From Phycisphaera mikurensis NBRC 102666 (GTDB lineage Bacteria; Planctomycetota; Phycisphaerae; Phycisphaerales; Phycisphaeraceae), in the NCBI RefSeq assembly GCF_000284115.1, contig NC_017080.1:2250001-2282000 (forward strand): a stretch of DNA of 32,000 nt, given 5' to 3'. Positions 2,988 through 27,301 of this stretch are shown piece by piece. Every line of letters starts with the position of its first letter. Position 1 is the first letter of the stretch. A program made the position numbers and the translations under genes. A model generated the notes under the pieces. The model did no database searches. It saw only the letters and a list, made by a program, of their open reading frames with translations, and was not told where the DNA came from.

Positions 2988-3683
2988 TCAGGCGCCGGCG
3001 ACGAAGCGTTCGGGCAGCTCGGACAGCGTCTCCCGCATCGCCGCCTCGCCGCCGAACTGGAAGCCGAGCTGGGTCGTGTAGGCGGCGCAGGCGTCGAGCT
3101 TCGCCGCGAGCGCGGCGGGCCGCGCCGGCACGGCCTCGCCGCGGGTGCGTTCGGCCACGCCGCAGCGCAGCACGTACGGGGTGTCGAGCCAGTGGAGGCG
3201 GCGCCCCGGCGGGACGGCCGATCGGGCCGCGGCGATGACGTGCAGGTGATCGGCGTGGTTGCCCAGGCCGTGCGGAAGGTACACGCGGTCGGCCCCGCAG
3301 AATCCGCGGATCGCGGCCGAAACGGCGGCCTCGGTGCCGCGGTCCGCGGGCCGCACGCCGGCGAAGAGCTCCGCAGCGCTCCCGTAGCCGCGGTGAGGCG
3401 CCTCGGGCAGGTCGAGGTGGTGGACGCGGTCGCGGGCGAGGCCGAGGCGGGCGGCGGCGGCGAGGTCTTCCCTCCGGCGGAGGGCGAGGTAGTCGGCGTC
3501 CGCCGGCAGGCCCTTGTCCAGCTGGCAGGCGAGGGCGAACCCGGCCGGGTCCGGAACGCTGCGCGTGAAGACGGTGACCAGGTCGACGCGCCAGCCGTCG
3601 GCGACGAGCTGCGCGAGGGTGGAGCCCGCGGAGAAGGCCGCGTCGTCGAGGTGGGGCGAGAGGAAGACGGCGGAGCGGGTCAC
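2988..3683 (-). CDS. PIG-L/LmbE-family N-acetylglucosaminyl deacetylase
   Basis: N-terminal VFLSPHLDDAAFSAG matches the PIG-L SPHxDD metal-binding motif, and a later HADHLHV matches the HxDH motif. About 230 aa. The GTG start overlaps the upstream GT4 stop as GTGA (3680-3683). Confidence 0.85.
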   Translation of the reverse strand: MTRSAVFLSPHLDDAAFSAGSTLAQLVADGWRVDLVTVFTRSVPDPAGFALACQLDKGLPADADYLALRRREDLAAAARLGLARDRVHHLDLPEAPHRGYGSAAELFAGVRPADRGTEAAVSAAIRGFCGADRVYLPHGLGNHADHLHVIAAARSAVPPGRRLHWLDTPYVLRCGVAERTRGEAVPARPAALAAKLDACAAYTTQLGFQFGGEAAMRETLSELPERFVAGA

Positions 3684-4900
3684 AGCAGGTGAGGCTTCGC
3701 CCGGTAGACGCAGGGCTCCGGCTCGCCTTCGAGTTCATCGAAGGCGTCGCGGGGCGGCGACGCGAGGACCGCCTCGTACACCCGCTCGATCGCGCCGGCG
3801 ATCACGGGCCAGGCGAAGTTCTCGCGGACGCGCCCGAGCGCGGCCGCGGCGAGCCGCTCGCGGAGCGGGGCGTCGTCAAGCAGGCGCCCGATCGCGGCGG
3901 CCAGCGCGGGGACGTCCGACACGGGCACCAGGAGGGAGTCGCGGCCGTCCTTCAGGCAGTCGACCACGCCGGTGGTCTCGCAGCTGACGATCGGCAGGCC
4001 GGTGGCCATCGCCTCGAGGATGGTGTTGCTGAAGCCCTCGGCGTGCGTGGGGCTGACGAAGAGGTCGGCCTCGCGGTAGACGGCCGGGGCTTGGGCGTAC
4101 GCGGCCGCGCCGGTGGCGGTGGCCCCGGGCGTGCCGGCGCACCGCGCGGCGACCTCCTCCTGGTCGGGGCCGATCCCGCTGACGCGGAGGACCACGTTGC
4201 GGCCGTCTGCGCGCAGCCGGTCGAAGGCGTCCAGCAGCTCGATCACGCCCTTCCGGCGGTCGACGCGGCCGTGGTAGAGCAGGCGGACCGGCGAGGACGC
4301 CGCGCCGGGCGCCCGTCCCGGCCGCGGGTGGAACCGGTCGGTGTCGACGGCGCCCGGCACGACGGTGAAGCCGGAGCGCGGCACGTCGAGCCGATCCGCG
4401 ACCGTTCGGGCGAAGCCGTCGCTGCCGATGATGACGGCGTCGCTCTGCGTGCAGACGCGCCGCATCGCGACGCGGTGCGTCGCGCAGCACTCCCCCACCC
4501 AGTGGCCATCGCCGCCCTGGATGCTGACGACCGCGGGCAGGCCCAGCTTGCGGGCGACGCGGAGGGCGGCGAAGCCGGTGGGGTAGCCGTACTGCGCGTG
4601 GACGAGGTCGAAGGGCCGCTGGGCGTGGCGACGCTCGACCTCGGCGGTCATCACCGCCATGTCGGCCTCGAAGTCGCCCCGCTCCTGCTCGTGCGTGCTC
4701 TCGAAGCCGACGACCTCGGCGCCCGGGATCGCGGGGGGCTCGCCGCCGCCGTAGACGCCGGCGCTCGCGCCGCCGTAGTACTGGCTGAGCATGGTGACTC
4801 CGTGGCCGCGCGCGACCAGCTGGCGGACCATGTTGTCGGCGTACACCGCCATGCCGCTGACCGTGGGGAAGTAGCGGCGGGAGAGGAAGCAGATCCTCAT
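3680..4900 (-). CDS. GT4-family glycosyltransferase (MshA/BshA/PIG-A-like retaining GT-B)
   Basis: N-terminus MRICFLSRRYFPTVSGMAVYADNMVRQLVARGH. C-terminal EX7E region EGFSNTILEAMATGLPIV followed by GVVDCLKDGRDSLLVP. I prefer the ATG at 4900, which has GGGAG 8 nt upstream; the track ORF extends to a GTG at 4921. Confidence 0.85.
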   Translation of the reverse strand: MRICFLSRRYFPTVSGMAVYADNMVRQLVARGHGVTMLSQYYGGASAGVYGGGEPPAIPGAEVVGFESTHEQERGDFEADMAVMTAEVERRHAQRPFDLVHAQYGYPTGFAALRVARKLGLPAVVSIQGGDGHWVGECCATHRVAMRRVCTQSDAVIIGSDGFARTVADRLDVPRSGFTVVPGAVDTDRFHPRPGRAPGAASSPVRLLYHGRVDRRKGVIELLDAFDRLRADGRNVVLRVSGIGPDQEEVAARCAGTPGATATGAAAYAQAPAVYREADLFVSPTHAEGFSNTILEAMATGLPIVSCETTGVVDCLKDGRDSLLVPVSDVPALAAAIGRLLDDAPLRERLAAAALGRVRENFAWPVIAGAIERVYEAVLASPPRDAFDELEGEPEPCVYRAKPHLL

Positions 4901-4970
4901 CGCGCACGCTCCCGGAACCACCGGGGCGACGAGCCGACGCGGGGCCGCGGAGCGGGTGGCGCGAGGCGGC

Positions 4971-6443
4971 TCATGAAGGCTCCTCCGCGAGGGCGATGGC
5001 GTGCACCTCCGGCTCGCGGTAGAGCGCGTACAGCGGCTCCATCCGCTCGTCGAGCTTGGGCGTTGCCAGCCACGCGTCGCGGCCGTCGGGCAGCGGCACG
5101 GGCCGGGCGCCGGCGGGCGGCCGGCCGTAGCCGGCCAGGTCGCTGCCGCGGCCGACGAGCCGGTCGAGGTTGCGGGCGCCGATGCGGTGGTACGTCACCG
5201 TCTCGACCTCCATCTCCGGCACGATCGCCTTGCACGCGGCGAGGCCGGTCGGACCGTCGGGCAGGCAGTCCAGGTGGAAGACGTCCAGGCCTTCCGCGGC
5301 GTACCGCGCCAGCACCTCGTCGAGCAGCTTCTCGGGCGTGTCGACCCGTGCGGGCTCGACGGTCGGCAGCTCGCTGAAGCGGACCGTCGCCTCCACGCGG
5401 AAGATCGTCGGTTCCAGCAGCGCCATCGTCTCCTCGGCGGTGAGGTTCACGAGGTCGCGCACGCCCTCGAAGCTGCGGGACTCTTCGACCGTCGCGGGGT
5501 TCGCCCGGAACGCGGCGAGGTAGCCGTCGGGGAAGAGGTGCTCCATCCGGTCGAGCGGACCGTGGCTGAAGAACTTCCGCACCCGGCTGGCACAAAACTC
5601 CAGCAGCGCCTTCTGCAGCGCGGCCTCGCGATCGGGGTGCGCCGCCTCGCCACAGCCCGAGAGCATCACCGGGTGCGGGCACGCCGCGGGGTCCCGCTCG
5701 TGCCCCACCACGTACAGGTTGGTCATGCCCAGGTTCGTGTCGGCGAGCTTGACGATGACCTCGATGCCGAGTTTGTCGAGCGTCGTCAGCAGATTGCGGC
5801 TGATCGGATCCTCCACGCGGTCGAGATCCACGCGGATGCCGCGGTCCAGGGCGCGGTAGCCGGCGGAGTTGCCGTCGCGCTGCACGAGCTCGAGGAGCCC
5901 GTGGCCGAGCGCCCGCTCGTAGGTGTCCCCGGCGCCGTTGCCGTTGCTGACCGGCTGGTACAGCGGCCGCTCGCCCTCGGCGAGCCGGAGGTCGTAGGTG
6001 TGGGTGACGGCGGCTTCCACCGGGATCCAGGCCTCGGGCTGGTCGGCCCAAGCGACGCCGTCGACGTGCCGGCGGACCTTCACCCACGTCAGCTCGCGGT
6101 GCTCGTCCCACGCGGTGCCGGCGGGCAGCCGCAGGCGGCGGGGATCCACGGCGTCGAGGCCTTCGGCCCGCAGGCCGTGCAGGCTCGCGACGCGCCGCTG
6201 CAGCGCAGCCCCGGCGCGGTGCGCCGCGGTCTGCTCCAGGAGCTCGGCCCACGTGCCCACCAGCGCCCGCGTGTCGCTGGGCCCGTAGCCGATGCCGTTG
6301 ATCATCTCGCCGTCCTCCTGCCACTGCGTGACGCTCCAGACGGGCACACCGGTGACGTCGAGCGGCGTGATCGCGAACTCGAAGCTCCTCGCTTCGGGCG
6401 CGAGGCGGCGGAGGCGGTCGAGGGTGGTCTGGAGGTCAGGCAT
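4971..6443 (-). CDS. YcaO-domain protein (ATP-dependent amide-activating superfamily), stand-alone
   Basis: Four regions align to the E. coli YcaO sequence as I remember it. NGIGYGPSDTRALVGTWAELLEQ matches NGKGATKKAALASALGEYFERL. VSNGNGAGDTYERALGHGLLELVQRDG matches VSNGMSAGNTRNEARVQGLSEVFERY. GEAAHPDREAALQKALLEF matches GAHPDFGVALERTVTELL. ACKAIVPEME matches CRIIVPGMS. The ATG at 6443 overlaps the upstream MBL stop by 8 nt. Confidence 0.88.
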   Translation of the reverse strand: MPDLQTTLDRLRRLAPEARSFEFAITPLDVTGVPVWSVTQWQEDGEMINGIGYGPSDTRALVGTWAELLEQTAAHRAGAALQRRVASLHGLRAEGLDAVDPRRLRLPAGTAWDEHRELTWVKVRRHVDGVAWADQPEAWIPVEAAVTHTYDLRLAEGERPLYQPVSNGNGAGDTYERALGHGLLELVQRDGNSAGYRALDRGIRVDLDRVEDPISRNLLTTLDKLGIEVIVKLADTNLGMTNLYVVGHERDPAACPHPVMLSGCGEAAHPDREAALQKALLEFCASRVRKFFSHGPLDRMEHLFPDGYLAAFRANPATVEESRSFEGVRDLVNLTAEETMALLEPTIFRVEATVRFSELPTVEPARVDTPEKLLDEVLARYAAEGLDVFHLDCLPDGPTGLAACKAIVPEMEVETVTYHRIGARNLDRLVGRGSDLAGYGRPPAGARPVPLPDGRDAWLATPKLDERMEPLYALYREPEVHAIALAEEPS

Positions 6444-7281
6444 TCGGTGCGGGTTCGGGGATCGGGAAGGGGTCGGCGGAGGGATCGCCCGCCAGCTGGG
6501 CGTCGAGCAGGGCCATCGCCGCGGCTTTGCCGCCGGAGGTCACGACCTCCCAGGGCGTGATGACGGCGTCGAAGTCCAGGGAGGCGAAGAGGTCGCGGTA
6601 GCGGCGGGCGTCGCCGTGGGTGATCGGGATGTGCGCGTCATAGGCCTTGTGCGTCGAGATCGTCTCGGCCACGCCCACCGTCTGCCCCTGCTCGGGGAAG
6701 GTGAACTTGAGCGCGTCGCCGCAGTACAGGCGGCCGTTGACGGCGTCGTGGAGGACGGTGTGGTCGGGGGTGTGGCCGGCGGTCCGGTGGAGGGCGAAGC
6801 CGGGCGCCAGCTCCCACGCCTCGTCGAAGGGGAGGGTCACCGAGAACGCCTGGCACCACGGCAACGCCTCCGCCTGGAAGACGGCCCGCGGCTCGAAGCG
6901 GTCGGCCACCCGCCAGAGGCCGCCGTACACGTGCGCGTGGCTCGCGGCGAGGAACGCGACGCCTCCGCGCGCCTGGAGGTGGTCCAGCGCCGCCTCGTCG
7001 TACCAGCCGCAGCCGTCGAAGTGCGCGTTGCCTCCGGGCGTCTCGATGAGGTAGCCGCTGCTACCGATTCCGATCGACGGGGTCGTGGTGAAGCGGGTGA
7101 CGCCGGGCAGCGGCTCGTCCCAGGACACGGCCTGCCGCGCGTCAACCTGCGCCGGCGTGGCGAAGGCGTAGCCGCCGGGCGGCAGCGGGTGCCGGTAGTC
7201 CTCGCAGACCGGGCAGGCGACCGGCTCGGCGGGACGCTTCTGCCAGAAGCCGCAGTTCTCGCAGACGTAGGGGCTCAGCAC
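6436..7281 (-). CDS. MBL-fold metallo-hydrolase-like protein with an N-terminal CxxC...CxxC zinc ribbon
   Basis: N-terminus VCENCGFWQKRPAEPVACPVCEDY contains two CxxC pairs. MBL-like elements are AASHAHVYGG (a degenerate HxHxDH), GHTPDHTVLHD and YCGDAL. GTG start at 7281. Confidence 0.7.
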   Translation of the reverse strand: MLSPYVCENCGFWQKRPAEPVACPVCEDYRHPLPPGGYAFATPAQVDARQAVSWDEPLPGVTRFTTTPSIGIGSSGYLIETPGGNAHFDGCGWYDEAALDHLQARGGVAFLAASHAHVYGGLWRVADRFEPRAVFQAEALPWCQAFSVTLPFDEAWELAPGFALHRTAGHTPDHTVLHDAVNGRLYCGDALKFTFPEQGQTVGVAETISTHKAYDAHIPITHGDARRYRDLFASLDFDAVITPWEVVTSGGKAAAMALLDAQLAGDPSADPFPIPEPAPNA

Positions 7282-7301
7282 GCGGGGTCCTTTGCGGCGA
7301 C

Positions 7302-7385
7302 GGCGTGCCCGGTGGCCTCGGGTCCGCCCGACGCACCCCGGCCCGCCGCGCGTGTCCGCGTCGGGCGTGCCCGGTGCCGCCTCGG
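7302..7385 (-). repeat. Direct repeat GGCGTGCCCGGTG...GCCTCGG (two copies, 62 nt apart) flanking a 9-bp inverted repeat, in the only large gap inside the operon
   Basis: Copies at 7302-7321 and 7364-7385; the first 13 nt are identical. The inverted repeat pairs CGCCCGACG (7325-7333) with CGTCGGGCG (7359-7367). Confidence 0.5.
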
Positions 7386-7407
7386 CGTCGTTGCAGCGGG
7401 AGCGGGT

Positions 7408-8469
7408 TCACCGGGCACGGGCTCCCTCCCCGGCGCAGCGGTCCAGCAGCCGCATCGTGTGCAGGTCTTCGTCCGGGTCGAAGCCGGCGAAGCTCCCGCG
7501 GAGGCAGGCGTCGGCGAAGGCCTCGACGAGGTTCAAGAAGGGGCTGCGGCCCTCCGGCGGGAAGCGGTGCGTCTTCGCGGATCCGTCTGCCGCCCGCGTG
7601 ATCGTCAGCGTTCCGCCGGGGTCCTGGCCCATCGTGTTCTCGCAGCGGGCCATGGCTTCGGTGCCGTACACCTCCAGCGTGCGGCGTGGGAAGGTTTCGG
7701 GGCGGTTGTAGGCGACGGTGTGGCTGAGCAGCACGCCCGAGGCGGTGCGGGCGGAGATCGCCGCGCCGTCGTCCACGGGCGTGTCGGTGTGGACGCGCCG
7801 CTGGAGGAAGCAGGAGACGTCCTCGATCCGCTCGCCGACCAGCCGCTGGAACAGGTCCAGCCCGTGCGGGGCGAGGTCGATCATGGCCCCGCCGCCGGCA
7901 CGCCGGGGATCGACCCGCCAGTTGTCGTGCGCTTCGGCGTTGGGCGGGGCCCAGTCGCGGCCGGTCCAGCAGGCGTAGTGGATGCGGACGCAGGTGAGGG
8001 TGCCGAGCTCGCCGGCGTCGATCCGCCGCTTCAGCTCCAGGTGGGCGGGGTGATGCCGCTGGTCGAAGGCGGTGGCGATGGGCACACCCGAGCGTCTCGT
8101 CTCGGCCACCATGCGCTGCGCCTCCTCGGCGTTGCGGGCGGTCGGCTTCTCGCAGAGCACCGGCTTCCCGGCGTGGCAGGCGGCGATGGACGCGGCGGCG
8201 TGCAGGTGGTTCGGCGTGCAGACGTAGACGGCGCCCACGGCGGGGTCGGCGAGCAGGGCCTCCAGCGAGCCGTGCGTGCGGTCGGCGCCGAGCGCTTCGG
8301 CCGCGGGCCGACGCGGATCGAAGGCCGCGGCGAGGTGGCCGTTGCGGCTGGCGCGGACCGCGGGCGCGGCGTAGTCCGTGGCCAGCCAGCCGCAGCCGAC
8401 CACGCCCCAGCCGACGCGGGCGCCGATCAAACCGAGTCCCCCGTGCCGCAGCCGCCCCAGTCGCTCCAC
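7408..8469 (-). CDS. Gfo/Idh/MocA-family NAD(P)-dependent oxidoreductase (inositol/sugar dehydrogenase-like)
   Basis: Rossmann N-terminus [20 protein letters not shown], then [30 protein letters not shown] (the family EKP motif). The track start is the GTG at 8469. A TTG at 8430 would give a TTGA overlap with the upstream stop and a more typical N-terminal length. Confidence 0.85.
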
Positions 8470-9374
8470 AGGCCGGCCGCCTCGAGCACGCGCCGCTGCA
8501 GCGCCTGCTCCGGCGCCTCGTGCACGATGTTCATGCCCACCACCGCGTCCGCGAGGACGAAGCCGGCGGACTCGGCGTGCCAGGCCATCTCCAGCGTGCG
8601 GTCGATCACGTCGGCCGCGTGGAAGCAGCGGGCCTCGGGGGTGTCGGTGCGCCTCGTGTGCCGGAGCGCCGCCCGCACGGCCGAGGCGAGCGGCGCGTCC
8701 AGCTGCTCGTAGGCCTTCTCGAAGGCCGCCGACGTCACCCGCTCGGCGAGGCCATGGGCGGCGAGCAGGCGGTCACCGGCGAAACCCACGTCGGGCAGGC
8801 TGGCATTGAAGAGGTGGTGGGCGAGGCCGATCGTGCAGACCACGCCGGCGTCGGCGCCGAAGGCCTCGCTCATCAGCACGGCGTAGGCGGCCGTCATCCC
8901 ACAGTGGTCGCCGTGGCTCTCGGCCGGCTCCAGGTAGAGCCGGGGCATCGACGGGTGCGTGGCACCGGCGCGGGGCTGGTCCATCAGCACGTCCACGAAG
9001 CCGGGCGGCCGCGCGCCGCACGCGTGGGCGCCCGCCGCGTCGGCCAGCGCGTCGGCGGAGGGCAAGAATCCGCGGACCGCGGCCGAAAACACGGCTCCGG
9101 CCTCGCGGTCCGCGGCGCCGTGGGCAGAGAGCAGCTCCGGCGTGAGCCCGGCGAGCGCGACCTGCGCGACCAGCCGGCCGGCGAGAGCCGAGGCCACCCC
9201 CGCCGGCGTCGCACCGGAGGCGAGCCGGCCCCACGCGTCGGCGAAGGCCCGATCGACCAGCGACCGCCGCCCACCGCCCGCCGTGCGGACCCGCTTAAGG
9301 CCGTTCATCCGCCGCAGCAGCGGCGCGAGGCGCGCGAGCGCCTCCGCCTCGTCGTTCGAAAGCCCCACGTTCAC
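8427..9374 (-). CDS. HD-superfamily-like protein (YfbR/HD_3-like, divergent); function unknown
   Basis: Only the last ~315 codons of track ORF 8427..9890 look protein-like. The GTG at 9374 overlaps the upstream stop as [21 protein letters not shown] resembles the ENVSEHSLQVA region of Yfb[15 protein letters not shown] resembles YHDASEVLTGDLP, and [12 protein letters not shown] resembles KQADALCAYLK. The assignment is from memory and tentative. Confidence 0.5.
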
Positions 9375-10561
9375 CGCGTGGCCGCCGCTTCCACCCCGAC
9401 CCGCTCCTGCAGCTCGCGGATGCTCGCGAGCATGGCCTCGTCGTCGATCTCGTGCACGTCCACCGGATCGCCCGGCTCGCGGATCAGCGTGATCGTGAGG
9501 CGGCCGCCGAGGTGCTGGCGGAACTCCTCCAGCCCGTCCATGAGCTCCTCGGTGCGGGCGAGCGCGGGGTGCGAGGCGAGCAGCCGGAGGTCGTCGAGGC
9601 AGCCGAGGATCCGCTCGCAGTCCCGGGGCGGGAGTCCGAGGACGCGGCGGCTGTAGAGGCAGTCGATCGCGAGGCCGATCGCCACGGCGTCGCCGTGGCT
9701 CAGCGAGAAGTCGGTCATCGCCTCGAGCTTGTGCGCCGACCAGTGGCCGAAGTCCAGCGGGCGCGCCTCCAGCGCCTCGAAGGGGTCGCCGCCCTCGGTG
9801 ATGTGGCGGAGGTGCCACAGGGCGCTCTCCTTGATGACCGGCAGGGCCGCCCGCATGTCGCGCTGGGCGATCCGCTTCGCGTCCCGGCACAGGCGCCCGA
9901 AGGCGTCGGCGTCCTTGAGGAGGAAGACCTTCACCGCCTCGGAGAAGCCGGCCCGGAAGGCCCCGTCGGGCAACGACTCCAGCAGCTTGGCATCATTGAT
10001 CACCGCCCACGGCACGGCGAAGGTGCCCTTCCAGTTCTTCTTGGAGAAGAGGTTCACCGCGTTCTTGACGCCGATGCCGCTGTCGTCCTGCGCGAGGGTG
10101 GTGGTGGGCATCCGCACGAGGCGGACGCCGCGGTGCGCCACGGCGGCGGCGTAGCCGACCGCGTCGAGCACCGCTCCGCCGCCGATGACCAGCACGTAGT
10201 TGCGGCGGTCGACGTCGAGCTTGTTGAGCCGCGAGAGCAGGTTCTCCACCACCGCGGGGTCGTTCTTGACGCCCTCGCCGCCGTCGACGCGGACGATGCC
10301 GCCGACCTGCTCGAGGCGGTCGGGGTGCCGGTCGAACAGGTCGGTCACGCGGTCCACCAGGTCGGGCTCGCCATCGGCCACGCCGCCGTCGATGACCGGC
10401 ATCACGCGGACGCGTCCTTCGGCGGGTTCGAAGACGCCCAGCAGGGCTTGTTCGTCGTCGCCCAGCGCGTCGGCGGTGAAGCGGAGCCGGTGACGGAACG
10501 GGACGGAGAAGTCCACGTCGAAGCGGGCGGACGCGTTGGCGGGGTCGAGATCCTGAGGCAT
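9371..10561 (-). CDS. 3-dehydroquinate-synthase-superfamily sugar-phosphate cyclase (EEVS/DDGS/DOIS-like or AroB-like)
   Basis: ATG at 10561 (MPQDLD...); the upstream part of the track ORF is shadow sequence. Motifs: [95 protein letters not shown]. These correspond to the nucleotide-binding, substrate and metal sites of DHQS-fold enzymes. Confidence 0.85.
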
Positions 10562-10592
10562 TGCGGAGCGAGCGGGGGTTGTGCCGTACGGT

Positions 10593-10604
10593 CGACGGTA
10601 GCGC
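10593..10604 (-). promoter_or_regulatory. GCGCTACCGTCG element, a candidate -10 region for the seven-gene operon
   Basis: On the minus strand TACCGT (10600-10595) lies 33 nt upstream of the cyclase ATG at 10561. It is followed by the 8-bp palindrome CCGTACGG (10584-10591). Confidence 0.3.
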
Positions 10605-10672
10605 CCCCGGGAGCGGCCGGCCACCGCCCCGCGCTGGGTTTGCGGCTTGTCCTGGTGCGAAAGCCGGGCGGA

Positions 10673-11508: not shown

Positions 11509-12147
11509 GTGCTGCTGCCCTCGCTGCGACTGTCGCTGGAGGTCGCCCTGCTGGCCACGCTGCTCGCGGCCGCGCTGGCGGTGCCGCTGGCTTGGGCGGC
11601 CCGCGCCGGGCGGCGGCGGCGGCGGGCCACGCGGATCGTCGAGGCCGCGGTCCTGCTCCCGCTGGTGCTCCCGCCGACCGTCGTCGGCTACGCCGGCGTG
11701 CGGATCCTCGGCCGCGACGGCCCGGCGGGCTGGCTCGGCGTGCCGCTGGTGTTTACGCTGCCGGCCGCCGTGCTCGCGGCCGCGCTCGTCGCGCTCCCGC
11801 TGGTCTACCTGCCGACGCGGGCGGCCTTCGACGCCCTCGAGCCGGACCTGCTCGACGCGGGCCGCCAGCTCGGGGCCGGCCGCTACGCCCTGCTCCGGCA
11901 CGTCGCCTTCCCGCTGGCCCGCGCCGGGCTCGCGGCGGGGCTGGTGCTCGGCTTCGCGCGGGCCCTGGGCGAGTTCGGGGCGACGGTCATGGTCTTCGGC
12001 TGGCAGCCCGGGCGGACGACGCTGCCCATCGCGATCTACGCCGCCTTCGAGCGCGGCGACCTGCGGGCCGCCGCGGCGCCCGCCGCCTGCCTCGCGCTGC
12101 TCGCGCTGGGCGCCGTGCTGCTGGAGCGGGCGCTGCGGCGGCGGTAG
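11509..12147 (+). CDS. modB: Molybdate ABC transporter permease
   Basis: Multi-TM protein with the ABC permease EAA-type loop LDAGRQLGAGRYALLRHVAFPLARAGLAAG and GEFGATVMVFG. Lies directly after modA. Confidence 0.85.
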   Translation: MLLPSLRLSLEVALLATLLAAALAVPLAWAARAGRRRRRATRIVEAAVLLPLVLPPTVVGYAGVRILGRDGPAGWLGVPLVFTLPAAVLAAALVALPLVYLPTRAAFDALEPDLLDAGRQLGAGRYALLRHVAFPLARAGLAAGLVLGFARALGEFGATVMVFGWQPGRTTLPIAIYAAFERGDLRAAAAPAACLALLALGAVLLERALRRR

Positions 12148-12151
12148 CGAA

Positions 12152-12166
12152 GCTCTACCCTCGCCC
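12152..12166 (+). promoter_or_regulatory. GCTCTACCCTCGCCC element (TACCCT is a -10-like TAnnnT) ending 1 nt before the xseA ATG
   Basis: Exact 15-mer shared with 14481-14495. TACCCT lies at 12156-12161, 6 nt upstream of the ATG at 12168. The element begins 5 nt after the modB stop. Confidence 0.4.
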
Positions 12167-12167
12167 G

Positions 12168-13490
12168 ATGCCCGCGCTCTTCGGCGATGACGCTTCCGAG
12201 CCCGCCGGCGCGAGCCGATCGCCGGGCGTGGCGGCCGACGCGCCCTGGCCGGTGTCCCGCCTCGCCGCCGGGATCCAGGCGGCGCTGCAGGAGGGCTTGC
12301 CGCGGAAGCTCCGGGTGGTGGGGGAGATCTCGAACCTCTCGGCCCGGAACCACTGGTTCTTCAGCCTCAAGGACGGCGACGCCAGCATCCGGGCCGTCAT
12401 GTTCGCCTCGGCCGCCCGCCGGGTCGCCTTCGAGGCACGCGACGGTCTCTCGGTGATCGCCACCGGCCGCGTCGACTATTACGCCGCGCAGGGCAGCGTG
12501 CAGCTGTACGTCGACGCGCTGCAGGCGGTGGGCGAGGGCGAGCTGGAGGCGGCGTTCCGGCGGCTCGCGCTGGAGCTGCGCGAGGAGGGTCTCTTCGCCG
12601 CGGAGCGGAAGAAGCCGCTGCCCGCCTACCCGCGGTCGGTCGCGGTGGTCACCTCCCGCAGCGCGGCGGCGCTGCAGGACGTCCGCGACACGGCCCGGCG
12701 CCGCTGGCCCGGCTGCCGGCTCGTGCTGGTGGACGTGCGGGTGCAGGGGCCCTCGGCCGCGCCGCAGGTCGCGGCCGCGCTGGCCCGTCTCTCCGCAGAG
12801 GGAGCCGCACTCGGCATCGACGCCGTGCTGCTCACCCGCGGCGGCGGGAGCATCGAGGACCTCTGGGCCTTCAACGAGCCGGACGTCGTCCGGGCGGTCG
12901 CCGCCTGCTCGCTGCCCACGGTCGCCGCCATCGGCCACGAGACCGACACGACGCTCGCCGAGCTCGCCGCCGACGCGCGGTGCGCGACCCCAACCCAGGC
13001 GGCGATGACGCTGGTGCCCGACGAGCGCCGGCTCCGCGAGCAGGCCGTGCAGCTGGAGCGGCGCCTCACGCTCGCCGCCGGGCGTCGGGTGGAGGCCGCC
13101 CGCGCCCGGGTGGAGGCCGCGGCCCGGCACCGGCTCTTCACCGAGCCCGCCCGGCTCGTCGCCGACGCCCGCGACCGCGTCGCCGCCGCCGAGCGCCGGC
13201 TGCACGCCGCCGTGCCGCGGCGCCTCGCCGCCGCCCGCGACCGGCTCCTCGCCGCCGAGCGGACGCTCGCCGCCGTCGGGCCGCAGCGCGTGCTCGCCCG
13301 CGGCTACACCTACACCACCGACGGATCCGGCCGGCCGCTCAAGACCGCCGAGGCCGCCGCGGGCAGCGCCAAGCTCGTGACGCGCTTCGCCGACGGCGAG
13401 GTCCGCAGCGTGCCGGAGCGGCGGGCCCGGCCGCGGCCGCCGCGCAGGCGTGGGCCGGACCCGGACACCGGCGGCCTCTTCTGCTCCTAA
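12168..13490 (+). CDS. xseA: Exodeoxyribonuclease VII large subunit
   Basis: ATG at 12168 (MPALFG...). OB-fold region VVGEISNLSARNHWFFSLKDGDASIRAVMF, catalytic region VAVVTSRSAAALQDV...LTRGGGSIEDLWAFNEPDVVRAVAACSLPTVAAIGHETDTTLAELAAD, and a coiled-coil C-terminus. Confidence 0.9.
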   Translation: MPALFGDDASEPAGASRSPGVAADAPWPVSRLAAGIQAALQEGLPRKLRVVGEISNLSARNHWFFSLKDGDASIRAVMFASAARRVAFEARDGLSVIATGRVDYYAAQGSVQLYVDALQAVGEGELEAAFRRLALELREEGLFAAERKKPLPAYPRSVAVVTSRSAAALQDVRDTARRRWPGCRLVLVDVRVQGPSAAPQVAAALARLSAEGAALGIDAVLLTRGGGSIEDLWAFNEPDVVRAVAACSLPTVAAIGHETDTTLAELAADARCATPTQAAMTLVPDERRLREQAVQLERRLTLAAGRRVEAARARVEAAARHRLFTEPARLVADARDRVAAAERRLHAAVPRRLAAARDRLLAAERTLAAVGPQRVLARGYTYTTDGSGRPLKTAEAAAGSAKLVTRFADGEVRSVPERRARPRPPRRRGPDPDTGGLFCS

Positions 13491-16891: not shown

Positions 16892-18145
16892 TCAGGCCGG
16901 TCGGGCGCGGGTCGCCCACGCCGCCCAGCCGCAGACGATCCAAGCGGTCAGGCAGTCGCTCGCGTAGGCGAGCTTGAAGCCGTCGCGGGTGCAGGCGGCG
17001 AGGGTGACCAGCCAGGCGGCGGCGAAGAGGCCGGCGGTCCACGGCTTCATCCCGGTGCCGCGGCGGGCGGCCAGGGCGACGGCGATGAACAGCGGGAGCG
17101 CCCAGGCCATGTCGAAGCCGCTGCGCCACAGCGGCAGCACGGTGCGGCCGAGCGCCAGAGCGGTGGCGTCGGTGTAGAGATTCCAGTTCTGCAGGAGCGA
17201 GAGGGCGAAGCAAGCGGCGGCGACCCAGGACCAGCGGCCCGCCGCCGCGTCGTCCCCGCACGCGGCGCGGAGGCAGAGGGCGCCGGCGATGAGGTACATC
17301 GCCATCGGCAGGCTGGAGGCGAAGTCGCCGCGGGCGGCGAGCTGCAGCTCCTTGAAGGGGATGGAGAGCATCCACGCGGCAAGCGCCGGCGCAGCGCAGG
17401 CCGCGGCGAGCAGCGCCAGCAGCGCGACGCCCCGCGCGGGGAGGACCAGGGCGTGGCGTCCGGCGGGGTCGCCGGCCGGAGTCCCCGCGCGCGAGCGGCG
17501 ACGCAGCCGCACGGCCGCGAGGAGCAGGAGGAAGAAGCCGACCAGCTCGGTGCCCTCCTCGACGAGCATCCGCAGGGGCAGCAGCGCGGGCGGCCACGCG
17601 ACCGCGTGCTCGAGGTGCTCCTGCACGAAGACGGTGCCGAAGAGCGCGTAGGCGGCGAGGACCAGGGCCCAGGCGTTGCCGAGAGCGCGTCGCCGGAGGA
17701 ACAGCACGGCGACGGCCGCGAGCGCGGGCACGGCGAGGACGGCCGCGAACCGCTCGAGCGAGAGCCCCAGCGACGCCGGGACGAGGAGGTCGAAGCGCTC
17801 GTGCAGGGACCCGGCCTCGTCGACGCACAGGCTGAAGGCGACGCCGGCCGTCACCGCCGCGGCGGCGGCGGCGAGGGGCTCGGCCCTCCGCAGGGCGGCG
17901 GCGGCGGAGCCCATGAGCAGGCCGGCCCACAGCAGCGAGCAGGCCGAGAACCAGGCCGCGATGTTGGATTCGCGGCCGAGGTCGAGCGGGCCGAGCGCGA
18001 GGCCCAACGCCTCGGGCCAGGTGCGGACGAGGTACGTGAGCCCGGCGAGGGCCGCGGCGGCGATGGCCCAGCCGAGCAGCCACCGCCGGGCGGCGGCCTC
18101 GGCTCGGGTGCGGGGGGCGGGTGCGGGGGTGGGGGCGCTGCTCAT
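16892..18145 (-). CDS. Polytopic integral membrane protein of unknown function
   Basis: ATG at 18145 (MSSAPTPAP...). About 417 aa with many hydrophobic segments (LLGWAIAAAALAGL, AAWFSACSLLWAGLLMG, WALVLAAYALFGTVFV, LVGFFLLLLAAV and others). I recognise no family. Confidence 0.6.
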   Translation of the reverse strand: MSSAPTPAPAPRTRAEAAARRWLLGWAIAAAALAGLTYLVRTWPEALGLALGPLDLGRESNIAAWFSACSLLWAGLLMGSAAAALRRAEPLAAAAAAVTAGVAFSLCVDEAGSLHERFDLLVPASLGLSLERFAAVLAVPALAAVAVLFLRRRALGNAWALVLAAYALFGTVFVQEHLEHAVAWPPALLPLRMLVEEGTELVGFFLLLLAAVRLRRRSRAGTPAGDPAGRHALVLPARGVALLALLAAACAAPALAAWMLSIPFKELQLAARGDFASSLPMAMYLIAGALCLRAACGDDAAAGRWSWVAAACFALSLLQNWNLYTDATALALGRTVLPLWRSGFDMAWALPLFIAVALAARRGTGMKPWTAGLFAAAWLVTLAACTRDGFKLAYASDCLTAWIVCGWAAWATRARPA

Positions 18146-18260
18146 CGTCGCTGAGGATCGGGCGGCCTCGGCCCCCGCCTGCACACGGGCCGCCGCGCGG
18201 CGCACGAGATTGTCAACAACCGGGTTGCCGATCCCGCCCGGCGGCGTCATCCTCCCCGCC

Positions 18261-20711
18261 ATGCCGCGCACCACCGAGACCCTCTCCGACTGGGCCTTCG
18301 CCCCCACCGACGACGCCGCCGCGGTGGAGCCGGGTTTCGACGCGGCGTCCTTCGCGCCGGTTCGGGTGCCGCACGACTGGTCGGTGGAGCACGGCTTCGA
18401 CGAGCGTCTCGAGGGCTGCACGGGCTACCTGCCCGGCGGCTTCGGCACCTACCGCCGAGCGTTTCCGACGCCGGAGGTGCCGGCGGGCGGCCGCGTGCGG
18501 CTGACCTTCGACGGCGTCTACAACCGCAGCGAGGTCTGGCTGAACGGGCGGCGGATCCACCAACACCCCTACGGCTACAGCCCCTTCACGCTGGATCTCA
18601 CCGACCAGCTGGCACCCGCGGACCAAGAGAATCTGATCGCCGTGCGGGTGGACCGAACGCGCTACGCGGACAGCCGCTGGTACACGGGCTCGGGGATCTA
18701 CCGCGCGGTGACGCTGGAGGTGGTGGAGGCGCTGCACGTGGCGCACGATGGGGTCTTCGTCACCACGCCGGAGGTCTCCGACGGCCACGCCTCGGCGACC
18801 GTCCGCACCGAGGTCGTCCACGCCGGGGCGGGGGAGGTCGGCTTCGTGCTGCACCAGCGGGTGCTCGGGCCGGACGGGGCGGAGGCGGCGAGCACGCGGG
18901 CGGGCTTCAACTCGGCCGACGCGGGCGTGCGGGCGGTGGAGCAGACGCTGGAGATCGCGGACCCGCAGCGCTGGTCGCCGGACGCGCCGACGCTCTACAC
19001 GCTCCAGACGCGGGTCGAGCGGGCGGGCGAGGTCGTCGACGAGGTGGAGACGCGGATCGGCTTCCGCACGCTGGAGCACGACGCGGCGCGGGGGTTCTTC
19101 CTCAACGGGCGGCCGACGCCGATCCGCGGCGTGTGCCTGCACCACGACGGCGGGTGCGTCGGGGCGGCGGTGCCCGACGCGGTCTGGGAGCGGCGGCTGC
19201 GCACGCTCAAGGACGGCGGCTGCAACGCCATCCGCACCGCCCACAACCCGCCTTCCGCGGCCTTCCTCGACCTGTGCGACCGCATCGGCTTCCTCGTCCA
19301 GGACGAGTTCTTCGACGAGTGGGAGTTCCCCAAGGACAAGCGGAAGAACTGCCGCGAGCAGTCGGTCGACGCGATCACCCGCGGCTACTGCGAGCACTTC
19401 CCGACCCACGCCGAGGCCGACCTGAAGGCGGTGATGCGGCGCGACCGCAACCACCCCTGCGTGTTCCAGTGGAGCATCGGCAACGAGATCGAGTGGACCT
19501 ACCCGGCCTACGTGGAGGCGACGGGCTTCTTCAACATGGACTGGCAGGGCAACTACTTCTGGAGCCTGCCCCCCAACGACCGGGCGACGATCCGGGCCAC
19601 GATCGAGGCGGCGGGCCCGGACCCCTGCGGCGAGACGGCGCAGCGGCTGGCCGGCTGGACGCGCGAGCTGGACACGACGCGGCCGGTCTTCGCGAACTGC
19701 ATCCTGCCCTCGGCGAGCCTGGAGACGGCCTACGGGGACGCGCTCGACGTGATGGGGTTCAGCTACCGCCGGGTGATGTACGACTACGCGGGCAGGCACC
19801 ACCCCGAGAAAGCGGTGATGGGCGGAGAAAACCTCGGCCACGCGCACGAGTGGCAGGCCGTGCAGGAGCGGGACCGCGTCGCGGGGCTCTTCCTGTGGAC
19901 CGGCATCGACTACATGGGCGAGAGCGACGGCCAGTGGCCGCGGAAGAGCACCGACAGCGGCCTGCTCGACGCCGCCGGCTTCGTCAAGCCCGCGTGGCAC
20001 CTGATGCGCACCCTGTGGCGGCCGGAGGTCCCGCACACGCACATCACCACGCAGACGCTGGACGACTCGCTCTACCGGGTGGACGCCGACGGCCGCGTGC
20101 TCGAACGGGAGCCGGGGCAGTGGGAGCGGCGGCTGTGGGGCTGGCACGGCGTGGAGGAGCACTGGAACTGGCGGAAGGGCGAGATCGTGATCGTCGAGGT
20201 GGCGAGCACGGCGGGCGAGCTCGACCTCGTGCTCAACGGCCGCAGCCTCGGCGCACGCCGGCGCGAAGACTTCCCCGATCGGCTCTTCAAGTGGGCGGTG
20301 CCCTGGGAGGCCGGCGAGCTGCGGGCGGTGGGCGGCGGGGCGGACGTGGGGATCCGCACCGCCGGCCCCCCCGCCACGCTGAAGCTCAGCCGCGGGCCGT
20401 CGGCGATGGCGGTGGCGGTGCGGTCACCCGACGCCCACCATGTGGAGGCCCGGCTGCACGACGCCGACGGCCGCCGCGTGCGGCACGCGGAGGCGGAGCT
20501 GACCTTCCGGCCCGACGGGCCGGGGAAGGTGCTGGGCGTGGACAACGGCTCGCCGCGGAGCGTGCAGCCGTACGCGAGCGACCGGCTGACGACCTCGCAG
20601 GGGCGGGCGCTGGCCATCGTCGGGGAGGCCGGCGGAGGCCGGCCGCTGCGGGTGACGGTGACCGGGCCGGGGCTGGCGGCGGCGACGCTGGAGCTCGACG
20701 CCGGCGCCTGA
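18261..20711 (+). CDS. GH2-family glycoside hydrolase (beta-galactosidase/beta-glucuronidase-like)
   Basis: ATG at 18261. Sugar-binding domain VRVPHDWSVEHGF...FDGVYNRSEVWLNGRRIHQHPYGYSPFTLDLT and RWYTGSGIYR. TIM barrel CNAIRTAHNPPSAAFLDLCDRIGFLVQDE and HPCVFQWSIGNEIEW. No signal peptide is evident. Confidence 0.85.
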   Translation: MPRTTETLSDWAFAPTDDAAAVEPGFDAASFAPVRVPHDWSVEHGFDERLEGCTGYLPGGFGTYRRAFPTPEVPAGGRVRLTFDGVYNRSEVWLNGRRIHQHPYGYSPFTLDLTDQLAPADQENLIAVRVDRTRYADSRWYTGSGIYRAVTLEVVEALHVAHDGVFVTTPEVSDGHASATVRTEVVHAGAGEVGFVLHQRVLGPDGAEAASTRAGFNSADAGVRAVEQTLEIADPQRWSPDAPTLYTLQTRVERAGEVVDEVETRIGFRTLEHDAARGFFLNGRPTPIRGVCLHHDGGCVGAAVPDAVWERRLRTLKDGGCNAIRTAHNPPSAAFLDLCDRIGFLVQDEFFDEWEFPKDKRKNCREQSVDAITRGYCEHFPTHAEADLKAVMRRDRNHPCVFQWSIGNEIEWTYPAYVEATGFFNMDWQGNYFWSLPPNDRATIRATIEAAGPDPCGETAQRLAGWTRELDTTRPVFANCILPSASLETAYGDALDVMGFSYRRVMYDYAGRHHPEKAVMGGENLGHAHEWQAVQERDRVAGLFLWTGIDYMGESDGQWPRKSTDSGLLDAAGFVKPAWHLMRTLWRPEVPHTHITTQTLDDSLYRVDADGRVLEREPGQWERRLWGWHGVEEHWNWRKGEIVIVEVASTAGELDLVLNGRSLGARRREDFPDRLFKWAVPWEAGELRAVGGGADVGIRTAGPPATLKLSRGPSAMAVAVRSPDAHHVEARLHDADGRRVRHAEAELTFRPDGPGKVLGVDNGSPRSVQPYASDRLTTSQGRALAIVGEAGGGRPLRVTVTGPGLAAATLELDAGA

Positions 20712-26072: not shown

Positions 26073-26203
26073 GACCTCGGAATCTTGGGGCGTCCGATGC
26101 AGGGGCATCGGGCGGTTCGCCGCTGCGCGGAGGGTTCCGGCTTCGCAAAGGCCGTCCCCCGAGGTGGCGATGAGGCAGGATGGGGAATTGCATGACGTCG
26201 TGC

Positions 26204-26220
26204 CCCCTTTGCCAAAGGGG
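26204..26220. promoter_or_regulatory. Perfect 8-1-8 inverted repeat CCCCTTTG-C-CAAAGGGG (candidate operator)
   Basis: Read directly. It lies in the AT-richer intergenic region about 170 nt upstream of the PEP-CTERM gene start. Confidence 0.35.
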
Positions 26221-26261
26221 ATACTGCTAATTTTCTTGTCGGCAATCCGCTCCAGCCTCTT

Positions 26262-26297
26262 GGATGCGCGGGCTGGTCGGCTTAGGATGCGGCGGGC
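26262..26297 (+). repeat. Tandem direct repeat GGATGCG(C/GC)GGGC, two copies 23 nt apart
   Basis: Copies at 26262-26273 and 26285-26297. They lie about 100 nt upstream of the PEP-CTERM gene. Confidence 0.35.
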
Positions 26298-26338
26298 CCC
26301 GGCCCCCGAGCCTCGAATCATCTCGCTCGGTTGCTCAG

Positions 26339-26375
26339 CCGCCAGAAACGACTGGCGGATCTTCCGGTTCTTTTC
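26339..26375 (+). terminator. Intrinsic-terminator/attenuator-like hairpin plus T-rich tail just upstream of the PEP-CTERM gene RBS
   Basis: CCGCCAG-AAACGA-CTGGCGG (26339-26358) is followed by ATCTTCCGGTTCTTTTC, then AGGAG (26376-26380) and the ATG at 26388. Confidence 0.4.
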
Positions 26376-26387
26376 AGGAGTTTTCTC

Positions 26388-27095
26388 ATGCGTCCGCTTC
26401 CTCTGCTATCCGCTGCGCTTTCCGCGCTTGTTGCCGCCCTTCCCGCCGCGGCAGCGACGGTCGTTTTCGAAGACGATTTCGATGACGAAAACGCTCCTTC
26501 ACACCGCTTCGTTCGCAACTACACCGGCTTCGCCAACTTCGAGGTCACCCGCGGCGGGGTCGACCTCATCGGCAACGGCCGGCTCGATCACCTCCCCGGC
26601 AACGGCCTCTACGTCGAGCTCGACGGCAAGAAGGGGACCGGCGGGGGCACGCTCCGCTTCAACGCCGACCTCGACGGCCTCGCGGGTCCGCTCGAGGTCT
26701 CCTTCGACCTCGCGGGCAGCCAGCGGCAGAGCGGCGGGGTCGTCGTGTCTCTTCAGGGCGAGAGGACGCGGTACAACTTCAACCGCGACGACGACTTCAG
26801 GACCTTCACCCTCCGCACCGAGTCGGCGGAGGACTTCGAGCTGCTCTTCATCCAGGGTGGCTCCGACGGCATCGGCATCCTGCTGGACAACGTCGTGATC
26901 ACGAGCCTCGCGGAGGCGGGGGACGGGGGGGCCGGGGGGGACGGGGGGCACGGCGGAGGCGATGCGGACGAAGGCAACGGCGGAGCCGACACCGGCACCG
27001 CTCGCCCGGCGGTGGCCGTGCCCGTGCCGGGCGCCGCCGCGGCGGGGATCCTGCTGCTCGGCGGCCTCGCCGCCCGCCGCCGCCAACGAGACTGA
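26388..27095 (+). CDS. PEP-CTERM-anchored secreted protein
   Basis: ATG at 26388 with AGGAG 7 nt upstream. Signal peptide MRPLPLLSAALSALVAALPAAAA. C-terminal sorting signal VPVPGAAAAGILLLGGLAARRRQRD (a PEP-like motif, a TM helix and an Arg cluster), preceded by a Gly/Asp-rich spacer. Confidence 0.78.
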   Translation: MRPLPLLSAALSALVAALPAAAATVVFEDDFDDENAPSHRFVRNYTGFANFEVTRGGVDLIGNGRLDHLPGNGLYVELDGKKGTGGGTLRFNADLDGLAGPLEVSFDLAGSQRQSGGVVVSLQGERTRYNFNRDDDFRTFTLRTESAEDFELLFIQGGSDGIGILLDNVVITSLAEAGDGGAGGDGGHGGGDADEGNGGADTGTARPAVAVPVPGAAAAGILLLGGLAARRRQRD

Positions 27096-27118
27096 CGACG
27101 CTTCCGGGGAGTCCGATC

Positions 27119-27298: not shown

Positions 27299-27301
27299 GG
27301 C

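Follow-up and report, generated by a model that had tools for sequence, protein, structure and literature searches.

A YcaO protein with a metallo-β-lactamase-fold partner in a cyclitol-aminosugar operon of Phycisphaera mikurensis and its possible role outside peptide modification

The DNA analysed here, called the window, is a stretch of 32,000 nucleotides from the planctomycete Phycisphaera mikurensis NBRC 102666 (contig NC_017080.1, positions 2,250,001 to 2,282,000), and its minus strand carries at 4971..6443 a gene for a YcaO protein of 490 amino acids. To our knowledge, every characterised YcaO modifies backbone amides of peptides or proteins to form azolines, thioamides or amidines. The clade to which the window YcaO belongs has a dedicated metallo-β-lactamase (MBL)-fold partner, is accompanied by neither a peptide gene nor a canonical YcaO partner and lies in a cyclitol-aminosugar operon found across phyla, and because of this we infer, with a slight lean in its favor, that the clade has a small-molecule role outside the peptides that are made by the ribosome and modified after translation (RiPPs), with a cyclitol-aminosugar substrate and the MBL-fold protein as obligate partner. 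Most likely YcaO and the MBL-fold protein constitute a two-component, ATP-dependent carbonyl-activating enzyme that would act on a glucosaminyl-cyclitol intermediate. The general claim, that is, a non-peptide substrate and an MBL partner, is far better supported than any specific reaction.

The gene directly upstream of the YcaO gene (6436..7281, minus strand) encodes a 281-amino-acid protein which combines a zinc (Zn) ribbon of the CxxC..CxxC type with an MBL fold, as judged by AlphaFold2 (AF2) and Foldseek. A database search gave more than 390 relatives of the window YcaO, many of which are proteins of 770-835 amino acids with both Lactamase_B and YcaO domains, and the genomes carrying a relative number more than 280. 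Eighty related loci, which scored best in a pattern-seeded scan and are no unbiased census, were fetched and the operon genes were mapped onto them by tblastn. In each of the 74 loci with upstream sequence, the gene directly upstream of YcaO encodes an orthologue of the window MBL-fold protein, and in 17 of these the two are a single uninterrupted open reading frame (ORF), namely in Bacteroidota (Salinibacter and several Hymenobacter) and Verrucomicrobiota. In Hymenobacter both the fused and the split forms occur. This is a Rosetta-stone pattern, and because the two genes are adjacent or fused in every related locus with upstream sequence, the MBL-fold protein is a dedicated and conserved partner of YcaO. 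The YcaO is thus not stand-alone, and the initial annotation, which was made from the sequence of the window and described a stand-alone enzyme with no partner protein, has to be corrected in this respect. The same annotation had rightly described an 8-nt overlap between the YcaO start and the stop of the Zn-ribbon MBL gene, since the ATG of the former lies at 6443-6441 and the TGA of the latter at 6438-6436.

The MBL family is a narrow one: of 1.84 billion (1.84e9) cluster representatives, 27 match it at E<1e-30 and 159 at E<1e-10. Its invariant residues are the CxxC...CxxC ribbon, S114-H115-x-H117, H170, D189, K192 and S209-x-H211. In motif 2, the Asp-His of the canonical HxHxDH is absent and Y/F-G stands instead, while the HxH, H170, D189 and H211 ligands are invariant. 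Because the metal ligands are conserved, the metal site is probably catalytic, and mononuclear or altered. The protein scores 16.7 in Pfam, under the cut-off of 22.7. Its αββα fold is predicted with a pLDDT of 93.5 (AF2) and matched with a Foldseek probability of 1.00 to 2p97 and B1 MBLs. Foldseek gave 491 matches at E<=1e-3, headed by 2p97, an uncharacterized Anabaena "metal-dependent hydrolase" (8e-11), and followed by B1 β-lactamases; as the nearest structure is a structural-genomics protein and the next are generic B1 lactamases, the structure is uninformative as to the function. By sequence, the MBL profile matches best, though weakly, two thioester hydrolases, PqsE and glyoxalase II. Distant Zn-ribbon-MBL relatives (about 30% identical) occur without YcaO (L084, 7270-8822; L085, 1154-5223). 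One of them overlaps a gene for a DsbA-like thioredoxin by 4 nt and lies near GGT, GST and aminotransferase genes, and another lies near rhodanese and methyltransferase genes, so that these neighbors give a faint hint of thiol or sulfur chemistry for this MBL subfamily.

The identity of the YcaO itself is clear. The YcaO domain (PF02624/IPR003776) is matched by Pfam at residues 52-412 with E=1.5e-47 and 162.9 bits against a cut-off of 25.7; the initial annotation had recognized its ATP-binding and active-site motifs. Invariant in the clade are the ATP/Mg motifs E67/E70, N167-G-x-G-A-G172, E185, R189-D190, E282 and S286-R287. Two deviations run through the whole clade, namely Gly63 for the usual Ser before ExxE and Gln188 for the second Glu of ExxERD. 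The clade also has invariant polar residues of its own (GCGEAAHPDR at 265-272, R289-K290, H294, K405, Y418, R420, R424 and a C-terminal LYxLYREPxxH), which could form a new, putative substrate site. The C-terminal PxPxP is not conserved: in the window protein PVPLP lies about 40 residues before the C-terminus, and across the family Arg prevails at the first position while the last one varies. All curated YcaO families of NCBIfam score below their cut-offs for this protein, that is, methan_mark_1 (TIGR03266), the best-matching one, with 82.5 bits against 365, SagD/TOMM (TIGR03604) with 75.9 bits against 219.25, and TIGR00702 with 71.4 bits against 75.65. For placement in the superfamily, all PDB sequences were compared with a profile built from 23 clade members. 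The thioamide-forming MJ1094 of Methanocaldococcus jannaschii tops the ranking (3e-29), followed by the cyanobactin heterocyclases TruD, LynD and MusD (1e-13 to 7e-11) and by the M. kandleri YcaO (4e-9); the E. coli YcaO (4Q84) reaches just E=0.0076 and is aligned over 43 residues only. By sequence, therefore, the clade lies closest to the thioamide-forming YcaOs of archaea and at a great distance from E. coli YcaO, and membership in the E. coli-type clade, a possibility that the initial annotation had left to be checked, is ruled out by this search together with the highly conserved neighborhood. Within the clade, the closest relatives of the window YcaO are found in genomes of Phycisphaerae and Tepidisphaerales.

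The usual companions of YcaO proteins are absent, as had been described earlier. The genes of the window were picked by third-position GC and frame plots, since the DNA has a G + C content of 74%, and Pfam scans of all ORFs supported by third-position GC in the 32-kb window gave no ThiF/E1-like protein, TfuA, nitroreductase/FMN dehydrogenase or lanthipeptide enzyme. Likewise, the window and the conserved flanks of the 80 loci have neither an E1-like/Ocin-ThiF (RRE) partner or fused domain nor TfuA. There are two gaps in the operon, both of them non-coding. The gap between the YcaO gene and the following glycosyltransferase gene (4901..4970) has no ORF, and the gap between the MBL gene and the preceding oxidoreductase gene (7282..7407) has no credible peptide gene. 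The only ORF with a start codon in the latter is 7275..7418 (minus strand, 47 amino acids, GTG start), which is rich in Arg, Pro and Ala, overlaps both neighboring genes and has no conserved counterpart at the related loci; it is most likely an artefact of off-frame translation in high-GC DNA, and the earlier statement that no short ORF fits within these gaps stands. Moreover, clustering of the ORFs of 18-110 amino acids in and around the operons of about 70 loci gave no conserved peptide family, and the clusters obtained were a low-complexity Arg/Pro artefact and shadow ORFs of real genes. Neither a short Cys/Ser/Thr-rich ORF nor a canonical partner, either of which would have spoken against the initial annotation by its own terms, turned up beside the orthologues. 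In the related loci the median gaps are 2 nt between the oxidoreductase and MBL genes and 8.5 nt between the YcaO and glycosyltransferase genes, and most junctions have a median intergenic distance of -4 to +8 nt. Every junction is a 4-nt overlap in several genomes (e.g., L038), so there is no space for a precursor gene.

The context of carbohydrate and cyclitol chemistry, also recognized at the start from the AroB-like cyclase, the GFO/IDH/MocA protein, the GT4 enzyme and the PIG-L protein, is highly conserved. Pfam and NCBIfam together with reading of the sequence give seven genes on the minus strand, which form one tightly packed unit at 2988-10561. In order of transcription, they encode an AroB-family sugar-phosphate cyclase of the PRK06203/NF004852 type (9371..10561, 396 amino acids, with the ATG at 10561 read from the sequence), an HD-like protein with an N-terminal helical domain and a YfbR/HDDC2-type HD fold in which HH replaces the HD dyad (8427..9374, 315 amino acids), a GFO/IDH/MocA-type NAD(P)-dependent sugar/cyclitol oxidoreductase (GFO) identified by Pfam (7408..8469, 353 amino acids, with alternative starts at 8430 and 8403), the MBL-fold protein, the YcaO as the proposed ATP-utilizing, carbonyl-activating subunit (with an ATG start), an MshA-like GT4 retaining glycosyltransferase with Pfam GT4/GT1 domains (3680..4900, 406 amino acids from the ATG at 4900, as in the public gene call) and, as the last gene, a PIG-L/LmbE-family de-N-acetylase (2988..3683, 231 amino acids, Pfam PIG-L 7.9e-15). 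The HD-like gene overlaps the cyclase stop by 4 nt, and the PIG-L gene overlaps the GT4 stop by 4 nt.

The HD-like, GFO, MBL, YcaO, GT4 and PIG-L genes occur together in 48 of the fetched loci. This full set is distributed in at least nine phyla (Planctomycetota, Bacteroidota, Armatimonadota, Abditibacteriota, Verrucomicrobiota, Gemmatimonadota, Acidobacteriota, Actinomycetota and Myxococcota), and the carriers among Actinomycetota are Rubrobacter, Micromonospora, Streptomyces and Actinomycetospora. Two variants are distinguished. In variant A (18 loci, the window included) the operon opens with the AroB-like cyclase, and in variant B (29 loci) it opens with an inositol-phosphate synthase (MIPS) and has in addition an AP_endonuc_2 TIM barrel after YcaO, the best solved relative of which is, weakly, the inosose dehydratase IolE (6.5e-5). 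The core present throughout is a carbocycle synthase with HD, GFO, MBL and YcaO. The gene order is modular: in L014 and L015 GT4 and PIG-L have moved together to another place, and the Actinomycetospora loci (L074, L075, L081 and L082) keep MIPS-HD-methyltransferase-GFO-MBL-YcaO but have no GT4, PIG-L or TIM barrel within 10 kb. This order links MBL-YcaO more closely with the cyclitol module than with the aminosugar one. Actinomycetospora, which produce mycothiol, might borrow MshA and MshB, or else the YcaO-MBL step might need no aminosugar.

Several accessory genes occur in subsets of the loci. An S-adenosylmethionine (SAM) methyltransferase of 380-420 amino acids is encoded between the HD-like and GFO genes in 13 loci (e.g., L067, 6991-8139; L065, 6551-7813; L046, 6936-8144) from Actinomycetota, Acidobacteriota, Myxococcota and some Planctomycetota, and is missing from the window operon. 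A GalE-like epimerase is found in 10 loci, and a BT1/MFS transporter and a second GT4 are also found in some. In five variant-A loci (L038, 1307-3148; L006, L008, L037 and L043) a transketolase gene lies directly upstream of the AroB-like gene, which fits a dedicated supply of erythrose-4-phosphate or sedoheptulose-7-phosphate for the cyclase. Furthermore, about 22 loci of Armatimonadota, Abditibacteriota and Verrucomicrobiota have after PIG-L a second YcaO paralogue of 493-505 amino acids (L039, 13452-14933; L032, 10636-12153; about 20 further cases in L027-L034, L036-L039, L042-L044, L049, L051, L053, L054, L056-L058, L060 and L083). Its identity to the first is about 40%, and it keeps the ELxQRD and LYxLYREPxxH motifs, and the Gly63 and Gln188 deviations are common to both paralogue groups; the window has the first type only.

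The individual enzymes support the picture to different degrees. The cyclase has the Pfam domains DHQ_synthase and DHQS_C and scores 460 bits in NCBIfam NF004852 (PRK06203, "3-dehydroquinate synthase") against a cut-off of 333. It keeps the equivalents of the Zn and phosphate ligands (E194, H271, H287, K152, N162, K197, R264 and H275), and its family motif, GGDPFE...RPLD[FY]GHWSAHKLE, differs from classical dehydroquinate synthase (DHQS) at the K250 and N268 positions (K250 to L/R, N268 to D). A reading as a clearly non-DHQS enzyme (DOIS, EEVS or DDGS) was withdrawn, since the cyclase is equidistant from the solved DHQS, EEVS, DOIS and DDGS structures and the motif is common to thousands of stand-alone homologues. 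The replacement of the cyclase by MIPS and the TIM barrel in variant B suggests, from the gene content, a polyhydroxylated (keto)cyclohexane, and it is a speculative idea that both variants converge on 3,5/4-trihydroxycyclohexane-1,2-dione.

The HD-like protein, a weak match to Pfam HD_3, is present in both variants. Its invariant residues are E152, H154, H157, H186, H187, N190, D195, D255, D258, R259 and H285, with His-His (186-187) in the position of the phosphohydrolase His-Asp, and Asn in that of the Glu of YfbR. The predicted metal site of three His and one Asp means that it may not be a simple phosphatase, though it could be a candidate sugar-phosphate phosphatase. The AF2 model has a pLDDT of 94, and its best Foldseek matches are HDDC2 and PF0395-type HD hydrolases (weak, E 0.05). 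As for a MIOX/PhnZ-type diiron oxygenase, the YfbR/HDDC2 phosphohydrolases are the nearest in Foldseek and PhnZ is far lower, all of these matches being weak. The GFO protein, whose nearest NCBIfam model is IolG (under the cut-off) and whose best PDB match is 1,5-anhydro-D-fructose reductase (9e-33), would form a ring ketone or reduce one. The best PDB matches of the GT4 enzyme are MshA, the D-inositol-3-phosphate GlcNAc transferase (6e-17), and then PimA and BshA, and in NCBIfam it scores 71 for MshA (cut-off 462) and 81 for BshA (cut-off 274). The PIG-L protein is best matched in the PDB by the GlcNAc-pseudoaglycone deacetylases Orf2* and Dbv21 of teicoplanin-type pathways. By analogy, GT4, PIG-L and a cyclitol synthase would follow the early logic of mycothiol, GPI and 2-deoxystreptamine biosynthesis, that is, transfer of GlcNAc onto a cyclitol and deacetylation to a GlcN-cyclitol.

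In YcaO chemistry, ATP phosphorylates the oxyanion of a tetrahedral adduct and the phosphate is expelled. A corresponding step can be drawn for this operon, namely a cyclodehydration on a pseudodisaccharide, which we offer by analogy and which, taken as a precise reaction, is somewhat improbable. The cyclase would make the cyclitol (in variant B, the inositol-phosphate synthase and the IolE-like TIM barrel), GFO would set up a keto-cyclitol, GT4 would attach GlcNAc in an MshA-like manner, and PIG-L would strip the acetyl group in an MshB-like manner to free the 2-amino group. The freed GlcN amine would then add to a neighboring cyclitol carbonyl, provided by the cyclase or GFO, to give a carbinolamine; YcaO would use ATP to phosphorylate the carbinolamine oxyanion and expel phosphate to form a cyclic C=N (an imine or enaminone), which GFO may afterwards reduce. 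As for the MBL subunit, which has a conserved 3-His/Asp/His metal site, it would either bind the sugar-cyclitol substrate in the right orientation or process the product. This scheme employs every module and accounts for the ever-present deacetylase. A wider statement, that the clade is the first YcaO to act on a non-peptide small molecule and that with the MBL and ATP it exchanges the carbonyl oxygen of a glucosaminyl-(keto)cyclitol for nitrogen or sulfur, is held tentatively, its chances being a little short of even.

Several points weigh against this small-molecule interpretation. A ketone-derived carbinolamine or a sugar substrate is without precedent among YcaOs, and Gln188 replaces the second Mg-binding Glu in the whole clade, so that the ATP chemistry could differ. 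MJ1094, the nearest solved relative, modifies a protein encoded elsewhere, and synteny alone is therefore compatible with a protein substrate. A few clade members (L023, L047 and L052) occur without the operon. The PRK06203-type cyclase family is very large (more than 8000 matches) and homologues 60% identical to the window cyclase, with the same active-site motif, stand alone in other Planctomycetes (e.g., L090, 8001-9185; L091, 8001-9164); they are probably housekeeping enzymes, and the family is thus a poor guide to the type of carbocycle. Finally, the cyclodehydration scheme leaves the MBL and HD-like proteins without a defined role. The members without the operon differ from each other. 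The YcaO of L023 (9962-11446), from a hypersaline "Halobacteriales" metagenome-assembled genome (MAG), belongs to clade 1, is 47% identical to that of the window and has no MBL or operon, and its neighbor is an AstE/AspA-type N-acyl-amino-acid deacylase gene (11523-12680). The orphan YcaOs of the Chloroflexota L047 and L052 are of the second type, and that of L052 adjoins a sugar ABC transporter.

Known pathways share parts of the operon with it but not the whole. Mycothiol biosynthesis (Ino1, MshA, MshA2, MshB), bacillithiol biosynthesis (BshA, BshB) and GPI biosynthesis (PIG-A, PIG-L) have a GlcN-cyclitol logic that is matched by the MIPS variant, and the HD-like protein is a candidate counterpart of the phosphatase MshA2. 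However, the window operon has the AroB-like cyclase in place of MIPS, the scores are far under the MshA and BshA cut-offs, GFO, the TIM barrel, MBL and YcaO are extra, and the MshC/BshC cysteine ligases and MshD are absent from the window and from the conserved flanking families of the loci. The 2-deoxystreptamine pathway uses a matching trio of cyclase, GT4 and PIG-L (BtrC DOIS, BtrM and BtrD) to build a pseudodisaccharide. It differs in that the operon has no aminotransferases, radical-SAM enzyme or Zn dehydrogenase, that its cyclase is not nearer to DOIS, and that it lies in a housekeeping chromosomal context and in many non-actinomycete phyla. The pathway of mycosporine-like amino acids likewise combines an AroB-family cyclase with an ATP-dependent exchange of a carbonyl or enol oxygen for an amine. 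This is an analogy only, in which the methyltransferase of 13 loci is a further parallel and the second YcaO of about 22 loci recalls two condensation steps, whereas an ATP-grasp enzyme is missing from the operon, the cyclase does not resemble DDGS (78 bits to 5TPR), the window operon has no methyltransferase and the MIPS variant would yield a C6 ring. In full-text searches, with subscription-only works outside their scope, no literature was found that links YcaO to inositol, cyclitol, MshB or metallo-β-lactamase, and none on dehydroquinate synthase and glycosyltransferase that is relevant to YcaO.

The initial annotation had proposed as the substrate a non-peptide amide such as that of an N-acyl amino sugar, or else a protein encoded elsewhere. 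The general idea of a YcaO in carbohydrate and cyclitol chemistry with such a substrate is considerably strengthened by the occurrence of the operon in at least nine phyla, but the specific example fits poorly, because PIG-L is co-conserved and the gene order ties YcaO-MBL to the cyclitol genes. In its worked-out form, YcaO-MBL would activate the 2-acetamido carbonyl of a GlcNAc-cyclitol, the one evident amide of the pathway, to give a thioamide, an amidine or an oxazoline, and we regard this as unlikely. O-phosphorylation of an amide is the chemistry of every known YcaO, the operon has an MshA-like GT4 that would transfer GlcNAc, and the nearest relatives are thioamide-forming YcaOs which take free sulfide; ATP-dependent conversion of the acetamido group of a sugar to an acetamidino group is also known in other enzyme families. 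The amide in question, however, would be destroyed by the PIG-L protein which accompanies GT4 in nearly all loci, MBL-YcaO is grouped with the cyclitol genes and is kept in Actinomycetospora loci without local GT4 and PIG-L, and no conserved sulfur-transfer or amidotransferase gene lies nearby.

A second alternative, less probable still, is that YcaO-MBL swaps the keto-cyclitol oxygen for external sulfide or ammonia and GFO reduces the product, giving a thio- or amino-cyclitol without a pyridoxal phosphate-dependent aminotransferase; the MBL would deliver or handle the nucleophile, analogously to TfuA, a part of the proposal that shares its low probability. It is in line with the universal core (carbocycle synthase, HD, GFO, MBL and YcaO), with the lack of an aminotransferase in the operon and with the closeness of the clade to sulfide-using YcaOs, as well as with the weak PqsE and glyoxalase II matches of the MBL and the DsbA, GGT, GST or rhodanese genes beside its distant relatives. 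On the other hand, YcaO has no precedent of acting on a ketone, these hints of sulfur chemistry are weak and common to MBLs in general, and no ThiS/MoaD, cysteine desulfurase or rhodanese gene is conserved at the operon loci. The comparison with TfuA goes further than the proposed role. The TfuA-associated thioamide YcaOs (thioviridamide, thiopeptide and methyl-coenzyme M reductase (MCR) systems) are likewise two-gene systems of YcaO and a small accessory protein, but no TfuA occurs in the window or the loci, the accessory protein here is a Zn-ribbon MBL metalloprotein, and there is no precursor.

It is also conceivable, though at a lower level again, that YcaO acts on a protein or peptide whose gene lies elsewhere, comparable to the glycine of McrA or to uL16, and that the sugar genes are merely co-regulated neighbors. 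MJ1094 (PDB 6PEU), the closest solved relative, catalyzes thioamidation of the McrA glycine, and like the window YcaO it is a single-domain protein without an E1-like domain, which needs no leader peptide and whose substrate gene is not adjacent. The window YcaO differs from it by its MBL partner, its sugar/cyclitol operon, its aerobic bacterial hosts without MCR and the Gln in ExxERD. E. coli YcaO thioamidates the backbone of the ribosomal protein uL16 without a local substrate gene (PMC13063428). Neither the E. coli-type nor the window YcaO has a local peptide gene, but the former has 586 amino acids with a TPR dimerization domain and an unconserved neighborhood, unlike the shorter window protein, whose six/seven-gene synteny with translational coupling and fusion is kept in at least nine phyla. 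The clade members of L023, L047 and L052, which have no operon, would suit a protein substrate, and the distance from E. coli YcaO in the PDB search would not. The isoelectric point, which might have hinted at a basic protein substrate as with E. coli YcaO, is unremarkable at about 5.

An ordinary RiPP system for azolines, thioamides or amidines with an overlooked precursor gene is very improbable and largely refuted: such short genes are easily overlooked in DNA of this G + C content, but the gaps of the window have no credible peptide gene, no short ORF is conserved in the loci, many of which have only 4-nt overlaps, the RRE/E1/ThiF, TfuA, dehydrogenase and protease genes of such systems are missing, the SagD and methan_mark_1 scores are below cut-off, and PxPxP is unconserved. 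The azoline-forming YcaOs (LynD, TruD, McbBCD and BalhCD) do share the fold and, in some lineages, fusion to the partner, and their cyclodehydration is the model for the step preferred here; in the window the partner is an MBL in place of an E1-like/RRE protein, and there is no dehydrogenase, precursor or conserved PxPxP.

The surroundings of the operon are housekeeping or unrelated genes (GH13 amylase-family, DUF4380, modA/modB-like, xseA, uvrB, GH2, rpsA, MPG, gap, cinA and SRAP). The divergent intergenic region between the operon and the modA-like gene that starts at 10647 on the plus strand (10562..10646), delimited by frame plot and sequence, is presumed to be the promoter region; neither a sigma-70 consensus nor an Rfam element was found in it. 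The only RNA gene detected in the window is a tRNA-Arg (CCT) far from the operon, at 30143-30216 on the plus strand. A regulatory RNA or leader was rejected, as Rfam gave nothing but this tRNA and the promoter and terminator scans were uninformative. A defence system was also rejected, as PADLOC gave no match for any of the seven operon proteins. Pfam gave no match for a 510-amino-acid ORF with high third-position GC at 16892-18424 (minus strand), which lies between uvrB and the GH2 gene, nor for the ORFs around 26164-27942.

Among the carriers are many MAGs with names that point to lichen metagenomes, Negev desert crust (AVDCRST), halite nodules (QS_/QH_), glacier-fed streams (GFS/GL) and soils, and cultured carriers include Hymenobacter, Rubrobacter, Micromonospora endolithica and Streptomyces desertarenae. 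Read from the MAG names alone, the carriers may be enriched in irradiated or desiccated sites, or this may be sampling bias; the lichen, desert-crust, halite and glacier-stream names are a hint of a stress-protectant role. If the carbonyl oxygen is exchanged for nitrogen or sulfur, the product may be a widespread new metabolite, either a cyclic imine or enaminone pseudodisaccharide of a "sunscreen-like" kind or a thio-cyclitol low-molecular-weight thiol.

The clade described here is a YcaO with a new class of partner, an MBL instead of an E1-like/RRE protein or TfuA, and probably with a new class of substrate. If the substrate is indeed not a peptide, YcaO chemistry would extend to small molecules, which would be categorically new chemistry, and the operon would point to an undescribed, phylogenetically widespread metabolite, the early steps of which resemble mycothiol and aminoglycoside biosynthesis. 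Genome-mining rules would gain a class of accessory protein, as RiPP miners now misflag or ignore such loci. The clade also offers a testable system for the role of "orphan" YcaOs, with natural fusions in Salinibacter ruber and Hymenobacter and cultured carriers that include Phycisphaera-like, Micromonospora, Streptomyces and Rubrobacter strains.

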